Assembly: GCA_024137785.1 (NCBI GenBank)
Contig: JAHRHZ010000095.1
Span: 3,691,640-3,755,639 of the forward strand
Source of the DNA: Ginglymostoma cirratum
Lineage: Eukaryota
Reading direction: 5' to 3'
DNA length: 64,000 nucleotides
Part shown: positions 1,056-63,439 of the stretch, piece by piece
How the letters are laid out: each line of letters starts with the position of its first letter
How positions within the stretch are numbered: the stretch's first letter is position 1
Position numbers and translations under genes: made by a program
The notes under the pieces: model-generated
The model's database searches: none
The model's input: the letters and a program-made list of their open reading frames with translations, nothing else
What the model was told of the DNA's origin: nothing

Positions 1056-1606
1056 ATAATAAGGTGTAGAGCTGGATGAACACAGCAGGCCAAGCAGCAT
1101 CAGAGGAGCAGGAAAGCTGACGTTTCAGGTCTAGACCTTTCNNNNNNNNNNNNNNNNNNNNNNNNNNNNNNNNNNNNNNNNNNNNNNNNNNNNNNNNNNN
1201 NNNNNNNNNNNNNNNNNNNNNNNNNNNNNNNNNNNNNNNNNNNNNNNNNNNNNNNNNNNNNNNNNNNNNNNNNNNNNNNNNNNNNNNNNNNNNNNNNNNN
1301 NNNNNNNNNNNNNNNNNNNNNNNNNNNNNNNNNNNNNNNNNNNNNNNNNNNNNNNNNNNNNNNNNNNNNNNNNNNNNNNNNNNNNNNNNNNNNNNNNNNN
1401 NNNNNNNNNNNNNNNNNNNNNNNNNNNNNNNNNNNNNNNNNNNNNNNNNNNNNNNNNNNNNNNNNNNNNNNNNNNNNNNNNNNNNNNNNNNNNNNNNNNN
1501 NNNNNNNNNNNNNNNNNNNNNNNNNNNNNNNNNNNNNNNNNTGTGTTCATCCAGCTCTACACCTTGTTATCTCAGATTCTCCAGCATCCGCAGTTCCTAC
1601 AATCTC
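1056..1606. mobile_element. Penelope-like element termini in inverted orientation flanking an assembly gap
   Basis: Left of gap ataataaggtgtagagctggatgaacaca...; right of gap its reverse complement tgtgttcatccagctctacaccttgttatc; degenerate 15-bp TSD caacatcaatgggag (1041-1055) / caatataaatgggag (1607-1621); same terminus as the GIY-YIG-coding copies at 38.0 kb and 45.5 kb. Confidence 0.8.
1142..1541. other. Assembly gap (400 N)
   Basis: Run of N. Confidence 1.
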
Positions 1607-39659: not shown

Positions 39660-40865
39660 TTTAATTTTTTGAGGAAGTAACCAAAAAGATTGATGAGGGC
39701 AGTGCAGTAGGTGTTGTTTTCGTGAACTTCAGTAAAGCCTTTGATGAAGTTCCGCATGGTAGACTAATTAGTAAAGTTAGAGCACATGGGATTCAGGGTG
39801 AGCTTGCTAATTGGATACAAAACTGGTTTTATGGTAGGAGACAGAGGGTGGTGGTGGAAGGTTGTTTCTCAGATTAGAGGCCTGTGATCAGCGGTGTTTT
39901 ACAGGTATCAGTACTGGGTCCACTATTGTTCTTCATTTATATAAGTGATTTGGATGAGAGTTATGGAGGCATGGCTAGTAAGTTTGCAGATGATGCGAAA
40001 ATTGATGGCATAGTGGACAGTGAAGAAATGTTAGTGACAGTGTTATCCTAGATTACAAAGTGATCTTGATCACTTGGCTCAATCAGCTGAGGAATGGCAG
40101 ATGGAGCTTCATTTAGATAAAAGCAAGATATTGCATTTTGGTCAATAAACCAGGGCAGGATTTATACAATTAATGGTAGGGCCCTGGGTAGTGTTGTAGA
40201 ACAGATAGACCTATAGGTTCAGGTAATAATTCTTGAAATTTGCCTCACAGTTAGACAGGGTGGTTAAGAAAGCATTTAACACACTTGCTTTCATTGCTCA
40301 GATCTTTGACTACATGAGTTGGGATGCCATATTGAGGTTGTACAGCGTGTTGGTGAGACCTCTTCTGGAGTAACGCATGAAATTCTGGTTGCTCTGTTAC
40401 AAGAAGATATTATTAAACTGGAGAAGGTTCAGAAAATATTTACCAGAATGTTGCCGGGGTGGAAGGTTGAATATAAACATATTTTTTCACTGGAACATAG
40501 AAGGCTCAGGGGTGACTTTATAGAGATTTATAAAATCATGAGAGGCATATCTAAGGTGAATAGCAAATGTCTTTACCCTAAATTGGAGGAAATCAAATCT
40601 AGGGGGTATATTTTTAAGGTGAGAGACGAAAGATTTAGAAAGAATGTGAGGCACGTTTTTACAAGTGGTTAGTGTGTGGAATGAACTGTCAGGGGATGTG
40701 GTAGATGCAGGCACAGTTACAACATTTAAAAGGCATCTGGATGGGTATATGAATAGGAAGGATTTGGCGGGATATGGGCCAAATGCTGGCAAATGGGACT
40801 AGATTAATTTGGATATCTGGTCAGCATGGATGAGTTAGACCAAAGGATTCGATGACTATATGACT
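39660..40865 (+). mobile_element. CR1 (HER1-like) LINE 3' 1.2 kb
   Basis: FFEEVTKKIDEGSAVGVVFVNFSKAFDEVPHGRL...SKFADDAK...LEKVQKIFTRMLPG...SLEHRRLRGDFIEIYKIM; tail gactatatgact. Confidence 0.95.
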
Positions 40866-45143: not shown

Positions 45144-45546
45144 GTACACAAACCCATGTTGCTATTTCCCTCTCTCATCTTCTTGCTCGGATTTTTTTGA
45201 ATAATACTAATGGATCCTCACTGAATTAGACTGTTATTAAACAGTTAAATCATCTTCAAATCTATTCGGTGTATGAAGCTTACAGCACAAAATGAAGGAA
45301 ACGTGCCCTTTGAGCCTGTGCAGCCATCTTCAAGAGCAAATTAGCAAGACCCAGTCCCAGTCTTTTCCTACAGCCATATGCTTCTTTTTTCTCTTTTGTC
45401 ATGTGATTATCAGTTTACTTTTAAAAAGTCATAATTGAATCTGTTTCCATCAGGTTCTCAGCCTATCTACTTCACATCCGAACCACTAAATAGGTAGTAC
45501 TGAACCTAAACATTACTAAAAGGAGAAAAAAGGTTGATTTTTTTTG

Positions 45547-46218
45547 TGATAACAAGGTGTGAAGCTGGATGAACACAGCAGGCCAAGCAGCATCATAGGA
45601 GCAGGAAAACTTGACGTTTCGGGCCTAGACGCTTCATCAGAAATGGGGGAGGGGTAGAGGGTTCTGAAATAAATAGGGAGAGAGGGGGAGGCAGATAGAA
45701 GATGGATTGAGGAGAGGATATGTGGAGAGGAGGCAGACAAGTCGAAGAGGCGGGGATGGAGCCAGTAAAGGTGAGTGTAGGTGGGGGGGTAGGGAGGAGA
45801 TAGGTCAGTCCAGGGAGGACGGACAGGTCAAGATGAGGTTAGTAGATAAGAGATGGGGGTGGGGCTTGAGGTGGGAGGAGAGGATAGGTGAGAGGAAGAA
45901 CAGGTTAGGGAGGTGGAGATGAGCTGGGCTGGTTTTGGGATGCGGTTGGGGGAGGGAAGATTTTGAAGCTTGTGAAATCCACATTGATACCATTGGGTTG
46001 CAGGGTTCCCAGGCTGAATATGATTTGCTGTTCCTGCAGCCTTCGGGTGGCAACACTGTGGCATTGCAGGAGGCCCAGGATGGACATGTCGTCTGAGGAA
46101 TGGGAGGGGGAGTTGAAATGGTTCGCGACTGGGAGGTGCAGTTGTTTGTTGCGAACTGAGCGCAGGTGTTCTGCAAAGCGGTCCCCAAGCCTCCGCTTGG
46201 TTTCCCCGATGTAGAGGA
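45547..46218 (-). mobile_element. PLE family 1: GIY-YIG endonuclease region, UTR and hammerhead terminus
   Basis: LYIGETKRRLGDRFAEHLRSVRNKQLHLPVANHFNSPSH...RRLQEQQIIFSLGTLQPNGIN; minus atttCTGATGAagcgtctaggcccGAAAcgTCaag at ~45610-45644. Confidence 0.92.
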
Positions 46219-46479
46219 ATTTTTTTTGTCTTGTGCTAATCAAAATTAGGATGCAAGAAACAAACCTGAAAAAAGACAGATGCTATTTATACAGCACAAC
46301 AAGAGGGTGCTGATTGTTCCATCCTCCACAAATGCTTCTGCTTTTGTCCCCTCCTTTACACCCCCACATCCTTTGGCAGTGTTCCTACTTCCCCTCACAG
46401 AACTTCTTTAACAATCGACTGATACTTCCCCAGGATTGTACTTCAATGAGCAGTCCCTAGCAATAACTGACCAGACGCC

Positions 46480-46800: not shown

Positions 46801-47557
46801 ATATTTTACATAATTTCACAAACACAATATGAACCTTTATGTTGCAAATTTTCTGAGGACTTCACCTGAAGAAAATCAACATTTGCTAAATGTACCGTAT
46901 CGGAGATCATTTAGAAATTACCAGGACAAAGTGAGTGCTTGCTCATGGGGATATTGCTAAGTATCGCCTTGTTTAGGAGGAGTTATAGAAGGCAGAAATG
47001 AAGCTTGCCAGAATAGCATCAAAATCTGGAGGAAAAAATGGGAGTTCCCTTTGCTAAGTTGCTGAACTTTGCAGTTCTAGTAATCATGACAGCAATTAAG
47101 CAAAATTATCAAGAGAAGGAACATCAAAATGAGTGAACTAGGGGACCACCTGTCAGGTTCCAAATAGATGTCTCCCATGTTTGGGAGTAAACACATGGTA
47201 TCCTCTATCTTCAGACTCTGGTCCAGGATTTCTTCAGATTCCTCATTTCCCACATCAATGAGTTCATATATTCACACTCAATCCCATTTCTTTCCTCATG
47301 AACAACAACAATAAGAATGACTAACAATTCCAGTACTATCTTGTCCCAAACTCACTTCTTATCTAAGCTAAAACAAACAATGGAAACATGATACAACCGA
47401 GATTGCTTAAAACTAATGATCGAGTCACCACATGCTAATCCTTAGTGGCCATCCTCTAAGGTTTTTCCCACTCTAGAGTTTCTACAAATTTCAACCTTCG
47501 TGGTAGCAGCATGCAAGTTAGATGGCTGCTGAGGTTCAGAAACAACAGTCCAAATAT

Positions 47558-47679
47558 CCGAGATAAAAGGTACTGCAGATGCTGGAGAATCCGAGATAAC
47601 AAGCATGGGGCTGGATGAACACAGCAGGTCAAGCAGCATCATAGGAGCAGGAAAACTTGACGTTTCGGGCCTAAACCCT
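47558..47679 (-). mobile_element. PLE family 1 terminal fragment
   Basis: actgcagatgctggagaatccgagataacaagcatggggctggatgaacac...gacgtttcgggcctaaaccct. Confidence 0.88.
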
Positions 47680-48864
47680 CCTCCAGGGACATCCTTTACT
47701 GGCTGTGAGCCATACAGGCCTGCCTCAGACACCACTATCTTTGTATGGATTTAGTTGCCTGGGCAACCTGGCTGATTGACATTCAATCCATTTCCCTTGC
47801 TGTTGCCTAAACAGAGAACTTCATTGTTGCCATGCAAAGTGAAGCTAGCTTCCTTTTCCATGATTTCTACACCATTACTTCAGTCTGGAAGCCAAATTAT
47901 CTACTGGAGAACAGATATTTGTGCAGCTGAGACAATCTGTAAGCCCCTTTCAACCAGAGTGTCACAGGTCACTATTATGACTGCCTAAATTTCCATCACA
48001 ACACTTCGTTATTTTATGAAAGACATTAGTCATGCAATAGAAATGATATAGGGTCCAGCTGTAGGACTTTTTCATTCTTTAAGAATTTGGCACTCCTTTT
48101 AAGTTATTATGAAGGCAGTGGGGCCTGCAACCTTAATTATAGTTACATATTTAGGGAGTAGAGATCAAGAATAGTTACGGCCATGTAAGAAGCCAAAGTT
48201 GCAGAATCCTCTAAGTAGAAAAAGACTATTGATTGTTAATGGGTGTATTTTCAAGTGTGTATGTGTGGGTGTGAGTATGAGCATACATGCATTTGTATGT
48301 GATGCCACACATAGTTGAAGATCTGTGAAAGGTGTCTGAGGTGCGAGGCATGTCTATGAAAGGTGCACTAGTATGAAGTACATTTCATGCTTATATATAG
48401 GTATGTATTGTAAAATTATTAATTGTACAAAAAGGTAAAAACTGTGTTATAAGAGTAACACTTCAATGTAAAACTTGAAGTTTGTCAACTTTTCCTGATC
48501 TCGTGATCATATATCCAAGTGGAGAGGTGACAGTTGTTTTTTGCACTTGTTTGGCAACTTTTTGTCTTACTACCAATTGCTGTCTTTCAACATCATTGTA
48601 AAATGATCTTTAGCATTTTATTTCTCACTGTTTTACATGCATGATTGCTTCATCATACATTGGTCTGAACTGGCTTCTGTTCCTTCCCAATATAACCCGA
48701 TGATCAGGAATTACTTTGTATGTTCTGGGTTGGGTCCATTTTCTGGACACTGCTGGTATGCAAGTATTTGGATTTGGATTTCTGACTCACACTGTCTGAT
48801 CAGTGTACAGTTTTGTTAGTTCTCTTCCTACTCAATTACATTTGCTAGGGAAGCAGTACGAAGC

Positions 48865-49435
48865 AAGCTGATGGAACTGTGAGTTGACAAGTCTCCAGAT
48901 CCAGATGGACTTCATTTTAGAATTTTAAAAGAGGTTACGAATGAGATGTTGTATTTAATTTTCCAAAATTTCCTGGATTCATGGAATATTCCATCAAACT
49001 GGGAAGTAGCAAATGTAACTCCTCTTTTCATGACAGAAGAAGGCAGAAAACAGGTACTATGGGCCAATTAGCTTGTGGCCTGGAATAGGAAGGTATTGCA
49101 ATTGATCATTAAAGAGGTTGTAGTTGCACACTTAGAAATACTTAAGTTAACTGAAAGAGTCAGCAGGGAGATTCTTTTTAATCAATTGCACTCTATGCAG
49201 TTTTGGTCTCCTTGTAAAAATATGAAAATGCACTGGAAGTGATTCAGAATAAGTTTACTGGATTAATAGCTAGAATGAGTTGATTGTCTCATGAAGACAG
49301 GTTGGACAGGTTTCCACTAGAGTGACAGTACCTAGGAGAATGAGGGATAACATGATTAAAGCGTATACAATCTTTAATGGTCTTGACAAGGTGGATGCGG
49401 AAAGTATGCTTCCTTTATGGGTCAGTCCAGAACTT
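48865..49435 (+). mobile_element. CR1 fragment, internally deleted
   Basis: DKSPDPDGLHFRILKE...IFQNFLDSWNIPSNWEVANVTPLF joined to C-terminal CR1 motifs. Confidence 0.8.
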
Positions 49436-49437
49436 AG

Positions 49438-49565
49438 GTGCTTGTTCCACCTTCTCAATACTTTCTTCCAAATGTGAATAGGATATGATTCAGATTTTGT
49501 AATTACATTCACTTTGCAATAGTCCACAAATAATTGTTGGCTACCATCTTGTTTTGGCACTATTG
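49438..49565 (-). mobile_element. Gypsy RT fragment
   Basis: VPKQDGSQQLFVDYCKVNVITKSESYPI; homologous to 54150-54280. Confidence 0.75.
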
Positions 49566-50759
49566 TTCCTACTTAAAATTCCAAGCCCTCACAAACTGTT
49601 TACACTAATAGCTCTGAGTAGGCCGCTCAGCATCTCTCTGAACTTTTCTTCATTAAAAAAATACCCACGACAAAATACACCTCTTAAGGTGATAGTATTT
49701 TCACAGTTTCTTTCATATCAGGCTAGGCAAGTTTTCTTGGCTATTATCTGAAACTTGCCTCAGTACATATGCACCATGGCCCTACAGTGCTTCACCTGTT
49801 ATACTGTATTTGCTGTTGTACATCAAGGGATCCCTAGCAGCAGCACCATCCCATCTTTAAAAGACCATTGTGCATCTGGTCAAGAGCTAATAGTCTCGAG
49901 CAGTTCTATGCAATTTGATTAACTTGCTCCTGACATGACAGAGCAGGGGAAATTGGCTCCTCACTTAGCCTGGAGGTCTTGGTGGACAGAGTGCTATAGT
50001 GGAGAGCCTTTCTATTCCTCCAGGGCTGGCAGAGGAAGCCACAGCATCAGACTCTGCCAGCCTCATCCTAGGTTGCCACATGGGTCAGTGAGGTCTGGTA
50101 CCAAATTGGTAAGAAAAAAATTTTTAGCAGGCTTCCGGGTATAGATTTTAAGTAATTTTTAGCTATATTCTCTTTCTTGAGGGCTTTGTACTCATGCTAT
50201 GACAAGTCATTTACTGTCTTTTTTAAGAACTGCAGGACCCCAAGCTTATTTTTAAAAAGAGACATGTCTTCTAACTTGAAAATACTTCCTAATCAGAAAT
50301 GAAGTAGTTTTTGCAGAACAATGCCTATCTACACTTCTTGCTTACAGAAACAGATACTGTTGATCATCCAAATTCTGTGATGCCCAGAGCTTTTGTAGTT
50401 GATCTTTAAATTTAGTTTTGGGTATCTACTACTGAAATCTTAGAGTCATTTCTTTTTAGATGGCCACTGCTGATAATCATGATGATGAATCTTTTATCTC
50501 TGGCAGGATATCTTTACTTGTTGCAGTAGTTCTTATGTTATCTCCCCATTACAGGCACTTTACTACCTGAGCTATTTGCTTACAGAGTGGGGCATGCTTA
50601 CATCAGCTCATCATGCTTCAACTGGCTCAAGTTAAGATGGAATCTGAGACATTATACCCTTAGGTCACATGCTTTGATACAGAGATGATACCATGAGGAT
50701 GTTTCTGAAAGGTATATTGACATACTCGCTTAAAAATTTGAGCACAAATTTATAGTGTA

Positions 50760-51470
50760 TGAAATGTGTTGAAATATGCAAGATTCTGAGGAGTCTTGAC
50801 AAGGTGGATATTGAGATGATATTTCCACTTATGCAGGAATCTTGAATTAGTGCACATAGAGTAAGGGGACACTACTCATTCAAAAATGAGACACAAAAGT
50901 AATTTCTTCTCAGAGAATCATGAATATCCAGAGTTATCTACACCAGAGCGAAGGCAATAGCCTAGTAGTATTATCGCTGGATTGTTAATCCAGAGAGTCA
51001 GATAATGATCTGGGGACCCACGTTTGAAACCCACCACAGCAGATGGTGACATTTGAATTCAATAAATATCTAGAATTAAGAATCTAATGGTGACTGTAAA
51101 TCCATTTTTGATTGTTGGAAAAGCCTGTCTTGTTCACTAATGTCTTTTAGAGAAGGAAACTGCCATCCTTACCCAGTCTGGTCTACATGTGAGTCCAGAC
51201 CCACAGCAATGTGGTTGACTCTTATGCTGCCTTGCCAGTGAAGCCCTCATCCTGTGAATGAATAAAGGGAAAAAAAAAGAGTTCTGGCGTCTAGATCACT
51301 CAAAGTACACGAACAGGAGATATCTGTATTTTTGAAATATCAAGGAGGCAGTGGCAATAAGGATCTGGCACAAAAGAGGATTTGAGACCATGGGCACATC
51401 AGCCGTGAGCATATAGAATGACAGGGCTTGCTTGAGGAGCTGAACGACCTCTTTCTTTTGCTGTTATATT
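50760..51470 (+). mobile_element. CR1 3' end interrupted by a family A SINE
   Basis: KILRSLDKVDIEMIFPL...FFSQRI..., resumes after the SINE poly-A. Confidence 0.7.
50950..51279 (+). mobile_element. Family A SINE
   Basis: ggcaatagcctagtagtattatcgctgg...gccatccttacccagtctggtctacatgtgagtccagacccacagcaatgtggttgactct...poly-A. Confidence 0.85.
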
Positions 51471-52034
51471 AGTGATTCACCAAGCACCTGTTTTGATCTT
51501 TCAAAATAATTCCTTTGGTCTAGGCAATATTATTTTTGAATGTGCTTTAATCATTTCACAAATGCAAAAAAAAAAGCTTATGGATAAGGTTGATTTTTTT
51601 TTTCTAGAGCGGCATTTAGAAAGAACTTTCATGCTACTTTTAATGTTTATTGGCACATATTGCACATACCAGACTGATTCATTCAAATTTCAAATTGTAT
51701 AAATTTCAAATCCTATGTTATAAACTGGTTACAGTTGCTGGTGACTACAAATAGCCTGGACATTGCTGTTGTCAAAAATATTTATGACAGCAGCAAATAT
51801 GAAATTCTGAGCAGCATGTGTAGAGTCTGTTATATAATTTAGTTCCTGACTGACCATGACTTGGTTCAAAAATTACTGTCTAAGCATCGAGGATATCATA
51901 CATTATTTGGCATGTCCACGAACTTGTAGTGCTTTTTATTTCTTGAACAACTGCTGATTAGAGGGTTGTGGGGAGTGTAATCTACCTGATTCCAATTATC
52001 ATGCATTATATTTTCAAGTTGCTTGACTACCGAC

Positions 52035-52991
52035 TGTTATGAAGGAGCAGTTGACCCCCACTCCAATAACTAAAACGAAAACGCCCATAGAAGCTCACCT
52101 CACCTCATAATCTATTAAAGGAAGTGTGAAAAGTGGGATAACATGCCTCTCACCTCCCAATCTGTAATGAAGGGGTGGTTGAATGAAAGAAATCCCTGAT
52201 ACTCACTTTATAATCAACAAGTAACAATTTATTTATCTAACTCTAACAGTGAACAAATTAACAGAACTGCTAACAAACTGAACAGTTCTCCATTAACTAC
52301 TAACTATTCCCAAGTAAACAAAATTCCAAGTAAATAAACACAAGCCCCACTTATATAAATTAAAGTAATAAGAAAAATAAATTAAAACTTAGCGTCTCAA
52401 AATTACAGTCAGGATACGTCTTCTACGACGCTTTGTGCTGTCTCTGCTGATCCTCGGTCAGGAACACCTTTCTCCATTGAATTCTCACGTCAGGAATATT
52501 AGCTAAGAGTGCCGCTGAACTTTTAGTTTAGATAATGGTTTTCTGAGAGCTTAGAGAATTCTGTGAGAGCCAGTGATTCTTTCTTTTATAGCTGACAGTT
52601 GTCTCTTGACAGATGACAGTTGACTCTCACATCAATTTTCAAATGCCCTCTTCTTTTATACCCTTGATGACCTATTAATTTCCTACAATGGGATTGCTCT
52701 TAGGTTATCAAAACCATCAGATTTAAATGTAATTGTGTTTTGGTATCTAGGGCCTGGTTTAAATTAATTAGCTAAATTCAGAAATCTGTTGTCTTGGTAA
52801 AAATGCTGCTTTGCCTGCTAACAATATAGCAGCTTGATACAATGTTTCAATTTCAAGAACTGTCTGTGCATCTGCTGCTGCCTGCAGACATTTTTAAATC
52901 TCCTAGCCTAAAAAAACCATCATCTTTTAAAGGGACCACACATGCTTTCCCCATCCCTCTACAAACATCAAATACTCTACCCAACTTAACA
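52035..52991 (-). repeat. 3' LTR (957 bp), TGTTA...TAACA termini
   Basis: 5-bp terminal inverted repeats; polypurine tract AGGGGGTGG immediately inside (52992-53000 on -); first ~160 bp homologous to 55708-55867. Confidence 0.85.
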
Positions 52992-55363
52992 CCACCCCCT
53001 TGAGAAGAAAAGAACCATCATGATGAAAAGTTGGTGTTTTTTTTTCTCAAAACCTTAACACCATTACTACTAGATCCGTAGGTCATTTCATACTAATTCT
53101 ATATGCATATATAACATTGAACACAAAGGTTCATATTTGATATACACATTTTTATTTTTAACCCACAACAACATATCCGCAATAACATTGTCACAATCTG
53201 CAAATGTACAGTCTATAAATTTAATGCTTGTAACATCAGACTCCAATGAAATAGTCTGGTGTTCTTGAATTGAAATCTTCAAAAATGTCAACAGGTTATG
53301 ATCAGCATACACAACCATCTGTGATATATTGTTTGCCACATAAACATTAAAATGTTATAAGGCCAGTACCAAACTCATTCAGTCCTTTTCAACAGCTGAA
53401 TATTTTCTCTGGTGGATATTGAGTTTCTTTGAAAAGTAACTGATTAGTTTTCAATTCCACAATGATTGTCCTGTAACAACATAGCTCCAGCCCCTAGATC
53501 ACTTGCTTCAATGGCGGACTTCAAAGGGTTTCAAGAAATTTGGCAAGGCTAAAACTGGTGCAGCAGTTAACACTGTTTTTAAATTCTCAAATATCTCCTG
53601 GCATGGTTCTGTCCATCAAAATCTTCTATTCTCCTTCAACAAATCCGTCAGTGGTGCCGCCAGGCTACTAAAGTTTGATATATACTTCCAGTAGGTCCAT
53701 TCAGTCCCAAAAATCATAGCACCTCTTTCTTCGAGGATGATGTTGGAAATTCCTCGATGGCTTTTGTCTTCACATTCCTCCGTGTCATCGTTCCATGTCT
53801 GAAGTTTTGCTCTAAGAATGTCTCTTCCCCCTTCTCGAATTCTGTTTTTGCTAAATTTATGACCAGCTTCACCTTCTGTAGTCTCTGGAAAAGGTCTGCT
53901 AAATGCACCATATGATCTTTCCATGAGTGGTTAAAGATCACTAAGTCATCTCTGTAGATGTCACAAGTATTGAATTCTGCCACAACTCTGTTCATAAGTC
54001 TTTATAATGTGGCTGGTGCATTCTTCATTCCAAGGGGCATTACTTTAAATTGATACAGCCCATTTGGGGGTTACAAATGCAGAAAATTCTTTCGCTCACT
54101 CTGACAAAGGTGTTTGCCAGTAACTGCAAAGTAAGTCCGACTTTATGATGTAAGTGGTTTGTTCAACATTTTCCACAGTCCTCCAGCCTTGGAATTGGGT
54201 ATGAGTCTGATTTAGTCACAGTGTTAACCTTTTGATAATCTATGCAGAATCATTGAGCACCATCAGGTTTGGCAACCAAAACAACTGGCGAACTCCACTT
54301 GCTCTGCCTCGACTTGGCGATGTTTTCTTGGAGCATTGCTTCCACTTTCTTCTGTACCTGTGCTGCTTTGAGAGGATTAAGCCTATAGGGGTATTGTTTC
54401 ATTGGAACAGCATTCCGTTGTCAACCTCATGTACTATAGTATGAGTCCTCCCCATTCTTTTTCTACAAATGTCCTGATAGTGCTGCAACAAGTCTTTCAA
54501 TTCAGTTCTCCATTCCTGAGACGGATAGCTTACTACCCTACCTCATTCTTTAAGCACTTCGTCATTATTCAACTTATTCTGAGTCAAATTGAAATCCACA
54601 TCATCTGCATTTGATTCCTCACTCCAAGTGGCAGTGACTAATACCTGTTTCTCCAGTTCCCTTTCCTGTCAGAGTAAGGTTTCAGCATGTTCACATGACA
54701 TACCTGGCAATTTTTTTTAATCTGGCATCTTTACGAGATAATTCATCTGACTTAGCTTCTTATCAATCTGATAGGGACCCCAAAACCTTTGAAGGGATCT
54801 CCTACCACTGGTAACAATACCAATACTTTATCCCCATGAGCAAATGTATGAATTTTTGATTTCTTATCTGCTTCTATCTTCATTTGATACTGTTCCACAT
54901 TCAAGTGCTGTCTAGCTAATTCACTACACTGTTTAATCTTTCTCTCACTTCAGATACATAATCTAACAATGAGATCTCTGACTTCAGGCCTATCAACTTT
55001 TCCTTAATTAATTTTAAACGCCCTCTTACTTTGTGTCTGACTATCAATTTAAATTGGGTAAACTGAGTTGATTCATTTGGAGTATCTCCAATGGCAAACA
55101 ATATAAATGGGATACCATTGTCTCAATCATTTGGGTAATCCTGGCAATAAGCCCTCACCATTGACTTTAGGGTCTGATGCCTTTCCAATGTTCGCTGCGA
55201 TTCAGAATGGTATGCATTCGATTTAGAGTGTTGGATGTCTAAACAATCCATGATCTCCTTACATAATTTGGCCATAAAATTGGACCCTTGGTCTGATCGA
55301 ATCTCACTGGATAATCCATAATGGGTAAAGAAAGCAAGCAACTCCTCCACAATACCTGGGAAG

Positions 55364-55553
55364 CAAGCATGGGGCTGGATGAACACAGCAGGTCAAGCAG
55401 CATCATAGGAGCAGGAAAACTTGACGTTTCGGGCCTAAACCCTTCATCAGAAATCAGATTTCTGATGAAGGGTTTAGGCCCGAAACGTCAAGTTTTCCTG
55501 CTCCTATGATGCTGCTTGACCTGCTGTGTTCATCCAGCTCTACACCTTGTTAC
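55364..55553. mobile_element. PLE-derived fold-back palindrome with two opposed hammerheads
   Basis: Perfect 82-bp arms 55374-55455 / 55457-55538 around a single A at 55456. Confidence 0.92.
55458..55493 (+). ncRNA. Minimal hammerhead ribozyme motif (mirror copy on - at 55419-55454)
   Basis: attt-CTGATGA-A-GGGT-ttag-GCCC-GAAA-CG-TC-aagt: intact core, stem I attt/aagt, stem II, palindromic ACGT. Confidence 0.78.
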
Positions 55554-55684
55554 CAAAGTTAAACAGATTTTTTTCACTTCTTACCTAAATTTTATTTTAA
55601 CGATCTCAGACTCTAATCCACAGGTCTGGTTAAATCTGCCCAAGTTATTCAGGTCCATTCAGATCCCATACACGAACTGGCCAT

Positions 55685-55705
55685 ATCCCGTACTTGAGCC
55701 CTTAA
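55685..55705 (-). promoter_or_regulatory. Degenerate tRNA-Pro primer binding site
   Basis: Just inside the LTR end on -: TTAAGGGCTCAAGTACGGGAT vs canonical tRNA-Pro PBS TGGGGGCTCGTCCGGGAT. Confidence 0.55.
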
Positions 55706-55707
55706 TC

Positions 55708-55867
55708 TGTTACGAAGGAGAGGTCGACCTCCCCTCTGATAACTAAAACTGAAGCACCCACAGAAGCTCAATTCACCTCGTAATCTGTTGAAGGAAGAGT
55801 GAAAAGTGGTATAACCTGCCTCTCATCTCCCAATCTACGATAAAGGAGTGGTTGAATGAAAGAAATT
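55708..55867 (-). repeat. Truncated 5' LTR
   Basis: Direct repeat of 52035-52195, differing at roughly one base in six by eye. Confidence 0.85.
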
Positions 55868-57499: not shown

Positions 57500-59005
57500 A
57501 TAAAGTCATTGAGGCATTGAGCCACATAGCATGGAAACAAACTCTTTGGTCTAACTCATCCCTGCTGACCAGACATCCCAATCTGATCTAGTTCCATTTA
57601 TCAGCATTTGGTCCATTTCCCTCTAAACCCTTCCGAAACATATACCCATCCAGATGCCTTTTGAATACTGTAATTGTACTCGCCTCTACCAGTTTCTCTG
57701 GCAGCTCGTTCCATACATGCACCAACCTCTGAATTAAAGAGTTACCCCTCAGGTCCTTTTTAAATCTTCCCCCTCTCATCTTAAACCCATGACCTTTAGT
57801 TTTAGACTCACCCATCCTCAGAAAAAGGCTTGGCCATTCACCATGCCACTCATGAATTTATAAACCTCTATAAAGTCTCCCCTCAACATCTGACACTCCA
57901 GGGTAAACAGCCCCAGCCTATTCAGCCTCTCCCTTTAACTCAAACCTTCCAGTCCTGGCATTATCCTTGTAAGTCTTTTCTGCACTTTCTCAAGTTTAGC
58001 AACACCTTTCCTCTAGAAGGGCAACCAGAATTGTATGCAGTATTCTAAAAGTGGGCTCACCAATGTCCACAGTATGACATTCCAACTCCTATCCTTAATG
58101 TTCTGGCCAATGAAGGCAAGTGTGCCAAACACCTTCTACACCACCCTGCCTACCTACGACTGTACTGTCAAGGAACTATGCACCTGCACCCAAGGTCCCT
58201 TTGTTCAGTAACACTCCTCAGGGCCCTACCATTAACTCTATAAATCCTGTCCTGGTTTGCCTGATAAAAATGCAACACCTCACGTTTATCTAAACTAAAC
58301 TCTATCTGCCACTCCTTGGCCTACTGGCCCATCTGATCAAGGTCTCATTGTACTCTGAGATAATCTTCTTCACTGTCCACTATACCACCCATTTTGGTGT
58401 CATCTGCAAACTTACTAGCCAAATCTACTATATTTACATCCAAATCATTTATATAAATGGCAAAAAGCAGTAGACCCAGCACTGATCCTTGCGACACACC
58501 ACTGGTCACAGGCCTCCAGTCTGAAAAGCAATCCTCTACCACCACCCTCTGTCTTCTGCTATCAAGCCAATTTTGTAACCAATTGGCTAATTCTAACACC
58601 CCCTCCCCCTCCTACCCTCCACTCCCCGACTCCGGATCCCATGTGATATAACTTTACTAACCAGTCTACCGTGCGGACCCTTGTCAAACACTTTGCTGAA
58701 GTCCAGATAGACAACGTCTCCTGCTCTGCCTTCATCAATCTTCTCTGTCACTTCTTCAAAATCGCAATTAAGGTATTGAGGTACGATTTCCCACTCACAA
58801 AGTCATGTTGACACTCTCTAAATAGTCTTTGCCTTTCCAAATACATGTAAATCCTGTCCCCTAAAGTGTCCTCCAACAACTTACCCACCACTGACATTAG
58901 GCTCACCAGTCTATTGTTCCCTGGCTTTTGCTTACAGCCTTTCTTAAATAATGACACCATAGTAGCCAACCTCCCCTTTTCCGGCACCTCAGCCGCGGCT
59001 ATCGA
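57500..59005 (-). mobile_element. CR1 (HER1-like) LINE 3' 1.5 kb
   Basis: SLFKKGCKQKPGNNRLVSLMSVVGKLLE...RQRVVVEDCFSDWRPVTSGVSQGSVLGLLLFAIYINDLD...KFADDTK...VWNELP. Confidence 0.95.
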
Positions 59006-60839: not shown

Positions 60840-62680
60840 GGAAACATAGGAACAGGAGTATGCCATTGAGTTGTTTCAGCCTGCTCCACCTTTCAATTAG
60901 ATCTTGGCTGAAAATCTAACTCAACGCCACTTTCATACTCTATTACAATATCCCTTGTCATCATCAATCCACAGAAATCTATCGACTTTTGTCATGAACA
61001 TTGAGAATAGAGATGATTAATATATGCATTATCATTTGGGATTTGGACCTTAAAATTGAGGCAGGTCTTTTGGTTTTAGTTCTGTAAAGGTAATTTTTTT
61101 GTTTAAGTGACTAGAAGGTTATTTTGAATAACGAATTAAAATCATTGCTTCCAAGGTGAAACGCAACTTTAGCTATTCCTAGGTAGGCACCTATGTGATG
61201 TTAATGGATAAAATGCCAATACTGCTGAGTTTATGACAGATAGGGAAAACAAATCAAAGCCAGTAGTTTAGTTTTGGCTTTAGTACAGAAGGTTCAAGAT
61301 TTCAGTTCTGGGAAATCAGTCACCCAAGTAAATCCGTGAAATATACATGTTATGGAAGTATGAAGAAGTTTTCAAGATATATGAACTCAAAAGAGATTTA
61401 GGCCAACAGAATTTAAAACAAAAACGTTTCTGCCAGAAAACCCAGAACTATCTCAGCAGTCCAACAAAATGAAATGAACTGGCAAGAGTCAGTTAAGAAA
61501 GAAAGAATTGAAATAGGTGTGATATTTTTCTTGAATCAAAAATCTGTAAAAGGATAGTTTTGGGAAGCAGGTTGAAATTTTGTTTTCCTATTTAAATTTC
61601 TTATTTTTCTCTTCCTTTGTGACAAACTTGTTACTTTTGTAATCTTGTGTGAATATGTTCAATGACTAACTTCTATAGTAATCAACTATAAAAAGGAAAC
61701 ATGTGATCTATATATATAGGTTTCCTTCCAGTATTAGACGCGTTCAGGACTGCCGTCAGCTAGGATCGTAAAAATATGTTCCATAATTAACCTTTCACAA
61801 CCTTCTGGGGTAGAGAATTCCAAAGATTCACCAGGCACTGAGTGAATAAATGCTTCCTAACTTTATTCTTAAATAGCCAACATCTTAATCTGTGATTATT
61901 TCCCCTGGTTTGAGACACACCAACCAGAGGAAAAATTCCATCAACAGTCACTCTATCATCCCTTGAAAAAATTTTGTATGCTTCCGTGAAGTCATCCCTC
62001 ATTCTTTGAAACTCTAAGTAATACAGAAGTAGTTTCTTCAAGCTCTCCTGATAAGACAATCGTGCCAACTTCATAATTAACCTAGTGAGCCTCCTTCAAT
62101 AATGCAGAAAATCATAACACTCCAGGTAAGGTTTCACCAAGGTTCTATATTATTAGGGCCATTCTATCTAGGTTAGGACAATTATATTTCCGTACTCAAA
62201 TCCCATTGCACTCAAGGTCAAAACATCGTTTGCCTTCCTAATCACTTGCTGCACTTGCATGCTAACTCTTAGTAACATATGAACATGAACAGGGAGGTCT
62301 TTTTGCAGATGCACACTTCCTAATGCTTCATCATTTAAGAAATATTGTCTCTTTTCTACCTATATAAATAATCTTGCATTGATTTACATCATATTGTATC
62401 TGCCATATTCTAGCCCATTCATTTAGTTTGTTCATGTTATCTAAAAGGTTCCTTGCATCCATCTTACAATTTATGTTCTCATCCAATTTTGAGTCATCAG
62501 GAAACTTGAAAATGTCACAACTGGAGTCCAGATTCAGGTCATTTATACAGATAGTAAAATTTGACAGCTGTAAACAAGACACTGACCGTTTCAACCAGTC
62601 TGTAACAGGTTGAAATGCTGAGAATTTTACATTTGTCAGTGATCTCTGTTTCTGTCTGTGAACTAATTCTCAATCCATGT
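60840..62680 (-). mobile_element. CR1 LINE split by a ~780-bp insertion
   Basis: FTICINDLNL...FKFPDDSKL; LSYQESLKKL...LWNSLPQKVV (61787-62074); 3' UTR resumes at 60840-61010. Confidence 0.85.
61012..61785 (+). mobile_element. Non-coding insertion in CR1, probably a solo LTR
   Basis: Interrupts a collinear CR1; no ORF; ends ...cagctaggatcgtaaaa, resembling an eroded LTR ...CGTAACA end. Confidence 0.4.
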
Positions 62681-62703
62681 TTTCTCAACAGGATTATAAT
62701 ATA

Positions 62704-62887
62704 AAAATAAAAATAACTGCAGATGCTGTAAATCAGGAACAAAAACAGAAGTTGCTGAAAAGGCTCAACAGGTCTGGCAGCACCGGTGAAGAAAATATCA
62801 GAGTTAATGTTTCGGGTCCAGTGACCCTTCCTCAGAACACTCCAGGTAAGGTTCTGAGGAAGGGTCACCAGACCCGAAATGTTAATT
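62704..62887. mobile_element. PLE family 2 insertion with inverted hammerhead arms and TSD
   Basis: Arms 62804-62838 / 62851-62885; TSD aggattataatata (62690-62703) / aggcttataacata (62888-62901). Confidence 0.88.
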
Positions 62888-63439
62888 AGGCTTATAACAT
62901 ACTTTACTAATAAGCACTTGAATAGTGAATCCGCCCTTGCCTCTGTTTCATGTACCCATTATAATAAAGAATAAATAATCCCAGCTAATATATGGTAGTA
63001 CAAGTGGTGTCTGACTGCAGAATGAGTAAGCTTGTCCTAGTGAACACATCTGCAGGAGCTGTCTCCATCTCACATTTCTGTCTCAGAGCCATTGAACTGA
63101 AACATGAGTTGGCAAGACTCCATTACAAATGGGAGAAGTGCCACTTGGATAATTTGGTCATATCTCAGCAAGATGCAGGATCAAAATGGGATTAGTGTAT
63201 CTGATATTTACAGCGTAAGGGGATCCTAAGATAGGTGAGATAGAGACCAATAATGCACAGAAAATAATCCTATCCAAATGGTACAATATAAGTATAACGT
63301 GAGGATAAAAGCTGATTTTTTTTTGGCTGTGTGAGCGATTCTCACTCCAAGGTCAAGTTATTTGACCATACCTTACAAAATGTGCACCCAGAGAAGTACT
63401 GGCATTCCAAAGCTGCCTTTTTCGGTCAAGTATGGAATT

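Follow-up and report, generated by a model that had tools for sequence, protein, structure and literature searches.

A perfect palindrome of two hammerhead motifs in Ginglymostoma cirratum DNA as a probable by-product of PLE insertion

How does a stretch of DNA come to carry two hammerhead motifs back to back, each arm the exact reverse complement of the other? The question is raised by a unit at 55.4 kb of the window, which is used here to mean the whole 64,000-nt stretch of Ginglymostoma cirratum DNA that was analysed. A first-pass annotation had described a perfect palindrome with a one-nucleotide centre, and this description holds. Positions 55374-55455 and 55457-55538 are exact reverse complements at 82 of 82 positions around a single central A, while the longest perfect arm in shuffled versions of the window (n = 8) is only 8-10 nt. 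The 82+1+82 structure is the longest short-spacer palindrome in the window and the 62.8 kb unit is the next. There is good reason to regard the 55.4 kb unit as a dead, 5'-truncated insertion of a Neptune-like Penelope-like element (PLE) with an adjacent inverted copy of its pLTR, made once on site as a by-product of insertion. The unit consists of the following parts.

55364..55455, minus strand: left arm, an inverted, 5'-truncated PLE 3' end (pLTR) that runs from the hammerhead 5' edge to the element end; 80 of 80 positions identical to the copy at 47600-47679
55455..55457, no strand assigned: centre, CAG, absent from the normal element
55457..55552, plus strand: right arm, a directly oriented copy of that PLE 3' end, from sequence comparison

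The normal element reads CCCC-ATTT ahead of the core, both in the copies at 38.4 and 45.6 kb and in the loose ends at 55458 in contigs of relatives. Measured against this C run, only 81 nt of each arm derive from the element, and the centre is the 3-nt CAG. CAG and the next base repeat 4 nt of the arm, a repeat that weakly fits slippage or a short snap-back. It had also been claimed that the unit, at about 190 bp, reads nearly the same in both directions. The outer ends contradict this. The outer left 10 nt (55364-55373) belong to tail variant A and match the 47.6 kb copy, and the outer right 14 nt (55539-55552) belong to tail variant B, the family's common end. Variant A also occurs as a loose end at 55538 in the relatives' run X19 and, judged by this sequence match, is a real variant of the family. 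Since the outer ends are two different family variants, two templates contributed to the unit. No target-site duplication (TSD) was found at the unit (TSD score p 0.98) and no 30-40 bp tail was found at either end.

The origin of the arms can be read from other copies in the window. The arm is present at six places (1.1, 35.6, 38.4, 45.6, 47.6, and 55.4 kb) and the family reaches a density of about 1 copy per 10 kb, in both orientations. At 38.4 and 45.6 kb the arm runs on upstream into a reading frame. Two of the copies are central to what follows.

45546..46282, minus strand: longer copy of the parent PLE, a GIY-YIG frame followed by the same hammerhead and 3' end, from Pfam and sequence comparison
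47555..47679, minus strand: separate truncated copy with an extended tail, 80 nt of it identical to the left arm 7.7 kb away

The frame at 45908-46282 matches Pfam GIY-YIG with an E of 3e-4 and 21.4 bits, just under the cut-off of 22.6. The best of 31 longer homologs are a whale shark protein with 93% identity and a zebra shark protein with 87% identity. The whale shark homolog (P0001) carries RT motifs and a C-x4-C-x2-C linker; the window copies are truncated and without the linker. A CX2-5CxxC linker between RT and EN is given for Neptune and Nematis in the available text of PMC8557442. From these sequences the host is shark-like, and the arm is the pLTR 3' end of an EN+ PLE, probably of the Neptune type. 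The PLE origin put forward in the first-pass annotation is supported by the same end following the GIY-YIG frame at 45.9-46.3 kb and by the close homolog with RT motifs. No host gene was found in a Pfam scan of 43 of the 58 long frames of the window. A weak Exportin-5 Pfam match below the cut-off was disregarded. Left of the 47.6 kb copy there is a short stop-free frame (46980-47200, minus strand) that is either a host exon or chance.

An intact hammerhead core had been claimed for each strand, and both cores were found, one motif of the form CTGATGA-A-stem II-GAAA-CG-TC on each strand. The ribozyme call was made by inspection against the description of minimal HHRs in PMC4209133, without Rfam support.

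55457..55494, plus strand: minimal type I hammerhead; core 55462-55468, extra A, stem II 55470-55481, GAAA 55482-55485
55418..55455, minus strand: mirror hammerhead; core at 55450, predicted cleavage after 55423

The hammerhead on the plus strand has a predicted cleavage site after 55489 and, in place of the absent helix III, a self-complementary ACGT. With Rfam there is no match at the gathering score anywhere in the window; at E<=10 the region 55300-55620 gives 11 matches, all below gathering and none a hammerhead, the best being generic miRNA hairpins. The motifs resemble the minimal PLE hammerheads of PMC4209133 in the core, the extra base before stem II, the G-C first pair, the short helix I, the missing helix III, and the self-complementary segment. 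They differ in stem II, which is 4 bp in both motifs compared with 7-8 bp in the published minimal hammerheads. The minimal metazoan PLE hammerhead is inactive as a monomer and has low activity as a dimer (PMC4209133). The 55.4 kb unit contains no second same-sense hammerhead and therefore could not cleave as an internal dimer. Pairs of metazoan PLE hammerheads are known on opposite strands at distances of 100-700 bp (PMC4209133), whereas the motifs at 55.4 kb abut, so that each strand holds one motif and its own antisense copy. Shark PLE hammerheads may already be listed in the supplements of PMC4209133 and PMC8557442.

The unit lies in the remains of another element, and these flanks bear on two other readings of the locus.

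52034..55363, minus strand: left flank, a decayed Gypsy-type LTR element with integrase, then RT, then the 3' LTR (52034-52193), from Pfam
55553..55866, minus strand: right flank, the matching LTR (55707-55866) and about 150 nt of leader, from sequence comparison

In the left flank the Pfam match to RVT_1 has an E of 2.6e-7 and that to rve an E of 0.002, which is below the cut-off. The two LTRs are 83% identical. Judged by sequence, both flanks are parts of one Gypsy-type element in the right order. The order of integrase before RT presumably makes it a Gmr1-like Gypsy element, and a primer-site-like stretch left of 55707 may resemble a tRNA-Pro site. Across the palindrome the Gypsy leader meets the middle of the integrase, and gag, protease, and the start of the integrase are missing. 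No gag-like frame was seen by eye left of 47553, and none of 36 candidates is a longer relative of the integrase piece. At the left junction a 9-nt word (55361-55369) repeats about 30 nt upstream in the integrase sequence (55332-55340); from the sequence, a templated or microhomology junction is possible.

The copy at 47555-47679 and the left arm at 55364-55443 are identical over 80 nt, have the same orientation, lie 7.7 kb apart, and neither has a TSD; a 5-nt direct match flanks the whole 47555-55552 span. Judged by this identity, the 47.6 kb copy and the left arm may come from one event. Could the whole span then be one large PLE-driven insertion of captured DNA, with two direct pLTRs, one inverted pLTR, and a tail at one end? 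Besides the two identical direct copies and the match at both outer ends, the layout is that of a rotifer NRPS gene case in the available text of PMC3846280. However, the Gypsy LTR pair straddles the right end of the span in the order of one deleted element, the clear TSDs in the window are 12-15 bp, and several end pairs were tried, so that the 5-nt match is weak. A single large insertion has only a very slim chance of being correct.

The perfection of the arms raises the question of whether the assembly itself is at fault, with real inverted PLE ends collapsed, homogenised, or joined across a repeat, hiding a missing Gypsy segment. The arms are 100% identical, while the other copies of the family, apart from the one at 47.6 kb, show 90-96% identity in this core. 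A sibling unit at 1056-1606 has a run of N in its centre, and assembly problems at such structures are noted in PMC8557442. The order of the Gypsy flanks stands against this, as do the unlike outer ends, which a plain fold-back chimera would not give. In addition, fold-back centres at one and the same position are spanned by contigs from four independent runs. An artefact of assembly is accordingly held to be improbable, and a true by-product of insertion is still the preferred reading.

The contigs just mentioned come from 4 of 24 listed runs, with no RNA run among those listed, and were compared with 55430-55720 at 88% likeness. They represent relatives and not the 55.4 kb locus, as no run holds more than 0.10 of the locus words and the locus's own flanks are absent; the flank at 55570-55640 has little or no contig cover in the four runs. 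The arm drew 17503, 12415, 38358, and 4666 contigs in the four runs, of which only 54, 57, 118, and 12 can be placed twice. Of the 12 indel rows, eight fall in the centre (55450-55456), with 1-7 contigs per run, and six of the eight centre variants occur in at least two runs. At least 10 joints (10 of the 15 among those listed) link 55452-55454 to points between 55501 and 55527, and 2 of the 15 listed change strand, each with one contig per run. The left breakpoints of these joints are forced to the hammerhead edge because only 26 nt of the left arm were compared, and with joint sides of 21-32 nt at 88% likeness the short-sided joints are unreliable. The contig tables record differences only, so that the exact CAG centre of the 55.4 kb unit is beyond their reach. 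These contigs show that fold-backs at the hammerhead edge recur, with centres that vary, in DNA runs from organism A and organism B; organism C yields a trace. Some single contigs have a depth of 69-135 against 13-22 for long single-copy-like contigs; some centres may therefore be multi-copy, although depth is no copy number. A separate kind of joint goes back from the element end to 55467-55505 in the relatives' contigs, in some cases with a depth in the hundreds, and points to head-to-tail tandems of the pLTR end, possibly retrozyme-like, in these relatives.

Similar fold-backs in two PLE families had been reported in the first-pass annotation. The recurrence in two families stands; the likeness is incomplete, as the 62.8 kb unit is asymmetric and the centre of the other sibling cannot be read.

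62704..62887, no strand assigned: second-family fold-back, a long arm with tail on the minus strand, a 12-nt spacer, and a short arm, from sequence comparison
62116..62133, plus strand: host DNA identical to 62836-62853, that is, to the 62.8 kb centre and 3 nt of each arm end; exact 18-mer
1056..1606, no strand assigned: first-family unit with inverted ends, a tail on the right only, and a 15-bp TSD with 2 mismatches, from sequence comparison

The middle of the 1056-1606 unit is a run of 400 N. In the 62.8 kb unit the short arm is 35 nt long and agrees with the long arm at all but 4 positions (31 of 35); these 4 differences all lie within two CpG sites and are uncompensated. This unit has a 14-bp TSD with 2 mismatches (62690-62703 and 62888-62901). 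The TSD p values are 0.007 for the 62.8 kb unit, 0.002 for the 1.0 kb unit, and 0.004 for the 38 kb unit; these are the 3 of 10 units tested with p below 0.01, and one more has p 0.02. The 1.0, 47.6, and 62.8 kb units each carry a tail, in every case on one side. The 18-mer at the 62.8 kb centre has one other occurrence in the window, 720 bp upstream, and shares 3 nt of microhomology with either arm end; of 20000 18-mers drawn at random, 41 have a second copy within 1 kb. Since its centre is an exact copy of host DNA 720 bp away, the 62.8 kb unit was probably made on site. The short arm (62851-62885) ends 2 nt past the hammerhead cleavage site; in this one case it looks as if reverse transcription had begun at the end of a self-cleaved RNA. 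Of the 5 second-family arms in the window, at least 4 begin no more than a few bases from the core, and from these starts the hammerhead 5' edge looks like a preferred stop.

Do such units move by themselves? MITEs are short and non-coding, with terminal inverted repeats that include the very ends, an internal non-repeated segment, and a short TSD of fixed length; they occur in many copies of uniform size and structure and have a partner DNA transposase with the same ends. The 55.4 kb unit is short, non-coding, and folds back on itself, but it is without an internal spacer, its outer ends are not inverted copies, it has no TSD, its parent is a retroelement, and the centres of its kind vary. 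The two sibling fold-backs have TSDs of 14 and 15 bp, and the only partner element seen is an RT/GIY-YIG element. A more general form of this proposal is that a MITE-like or non-autonomous PLE derivative propagates itself as a fold-back copied whole, centre included. Several centre variants recur across runs and species labels at a depth above the single-copy level, and non-autonomous pLTR derivatives do exist in the form of retrozymes (10.64898/2026.07.22.740005) and Chlamys MRC1 (PMC8557442). Against this, at least 8 symmetric and at least 10 asymmetric centre forms are present in the relatives, the 62.8 kb centre was copied from local host DNA, and the CAG centre occurs once in the window, in a unit with unlike outer ends and no TSD. 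Recurrence of centres may also arise without mobility, because few symmetric centres are possible at one stop site. The comparison of centres that had been proposed as a check gives a divided answer, as centres do vary in the relatives but some variants look multi-copy. Taken with the published PLE layout, these observations lead us to set aside the MITE-like class of the first-pass annotation, and self-propagation in any form is unlikely to account for the unit.

An explanation of the unit as a by-product of PLE insertion starts from what is observed: the arm is identified as a PLE 3' end, the two copies lie head-to-head with outer ends that differ, host sequence has been lost, and there is no TSD. 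The PLE enzyme would nick the target and reverse-transcribe from an internal start near the tail; target-primed reverse transcription of this kind is described in PMC11167929, where a PLE protein nicks and extends both strands in vitro. Synthesis of cDNA would stop at the hammerhead 5' edge, and the 3' end of the cDNA would fold back by pairing of a few bases, in some cases having first switched to host DNA close by. Copying of the folded end would produce the second arm. It is proposed that the copied strand then finishes on a second PLE template of another variant, which may be a copy already present in the Gypsy leader or a cDNA begun at another nick, and that this step would remove the intervening host DNA and leave no TSD. 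At 62.8 kb the growing strand would jump to nearby host DNA and then fold back on its own cDNA. The clue to snap-back comes from this one sibling of another family and not from the 55.4 kb unit. If the unit is a by-product, snap-back of nascent cDNA is a slightly favoured route.

The same identity could be reached by another route, in which both target strands are primed on two PLE RNAs and the two cDNAs stop at the hammerhead edge and are end-joined. Arm identity would then be due to a young subfamily or to later conversion between the arms. The presence of two tail variants at the two ends would follow readily, and cleavage and extension of both strands, a predicted protein dimer (PMC11167929), and the action of minimal hammerheads as dimers (PMC4209133) are in keeping with this route. 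However, two antisense cDNAs are not complementary and the exact symmetry needs a stop on the same base, while the microhomology at the 62.8 kb junction fits one continuous strand that folds back. End-joining is a rather doubtful route, though one to be taken seriously.

It had further been claimed that a read-through transcript would form a hairpin that sequesters the ribozyme, and the predicted folds agree. The hairpin energy is predicted to be -172 kcal/mol on the plus strand and -168.5 kcal/mol on the minus strand. The fold of the plus transcript, with a 3-nt loop, is 60 kcal/mol better than the best fold that keeps the ribozyme helices. The pairing probability of stem II is about 1e-19 in the full hairpin compared with 0.44-0.49 in a single arm, where that of helix I is at most 0.02. 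Any transcript through the unit would be predicted to form a hairpin of at least 82 bp with an inert ribozyme, as a consequence of the structure and not as a selected function.

Might such hairpins persist as substrates of Dicer or ADAR that serve to silence the parent family? The predicted hairpin is stable, and read-through is possible because a Gypsy LTR, a putative promoter, points into the unit on the minus strand from 150 nt away. PLEs are also small-RNA targets in rotifers (PMC3846280), but according to the available text of the same paper these small RNAs are mostly piRNA-like. Other observations disagree with silencing. The older arms at 62.8 kb differ at CpG sites only and without compensation, so that selection on the hairpin is not apparent; antisense RNA is already available from the copies dispersed in both orientations; and no host gene was found among the 43 of 58 long frames scanned. 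Retention for silencing is very improbable. It is similarly hard to credit, if not quite to the same degree, that some shark PLE fold-backs are copied whole and form a non-autonomous class, with a hairpin RNA that keeps its own ribozyme shut and is a source of small RNAs directed at the parent family. If this were true, the subfamilies of that class would be those centre variants that are shared between runs and exceed single-copy depth.

The unit as a by-product of insertion has close counterparts among known PLEs. Many PLE insertions lack their 5' part; an inverted, truncated copy directly abuts them at the 5' end, and one of their ends bears a tail of 30-40 bp (PMC8557442). Head-to-head inverted structures with palindromes at the junction are abundant, self-priming on an antisense template has been proposed for them, the tail is optional, and TSD-less copies are reported (PMC3846280). 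The 55.4 kb unit is a further instance of this published inverted-pLTR structure. It shares with the EN+ PLE units of these two papers a GIY-YIG parent, a hammerhead in the pLTR, and a head-to-head inverted copy with a junction palindrome, and its siblings share the one-end tail and the TSDs. It differs from them in that its arms are less than 100 nt with no ORF left, it is without TSD or tail, its outer ends come from two variants, and host DNA is deleted at the site. Non-LTR retrozymes are also short, non-coding, pLTR-derived units with type I hammerheads, and one is reported from a chondrichthyan (10.64898/2026.07.22.740005). According to the available text they form head-to-tail tandems that allow dimer cleavage and are marked by abundant circular RNA, whereas the 55.4 kb unit is head-to-head and buries its ribozyme; assignment to the non-LTR retrozymes was rejected for this reason. 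Fold-backs at yeast breaks are likewise inverted duplications made by microhomology-primed fold-back (PMC11724301), and host DNA is likewise copied into LINE-1 junctions (PMC11702581). These are, however, products of repair or of L1, and twin priming of L1 yields an inversion in which the same segment is not fully duplicated.

The feature is thus ordinary for PLEs and its value is a modest clue, in the junctions only, to how fold-backs form. The origin of PLE head-to-head inverted ends is called undefined in PMC8557442, and PMC3846280 leaves open which antisense template self-primes. Because the 62.8 kb centre was copied from host DNA 720 bp away and the two ends at 55.4 kb come from two templates, our comparison suggests that nascent cDNA at the target serves as the antisense template. 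In the literature consulted, mostly titles and the beginnings of abstracts with subscription papers outside its scope, no report of palindromes in shark PLEs, or of PLE centres with a local template, was found. Shark genomes hold many such junctions.

Palindromes and repeats of other kinds were also encountered. Fold-back centres at 38 metagenome loci (L001-L038) were considered and rejected as unrelated palindromes, as none of the 38 matches the arm or the PLE by BLAST. Many of these 38 contigs share the same perfect 24-nt palindrome, which matches the search pattern. Another repeat of about 1.2 kb is present in the window in two copies on opposite strands (39667-40845 and 57544-58761); these are 70% alike and are probably LINE 3' ends.
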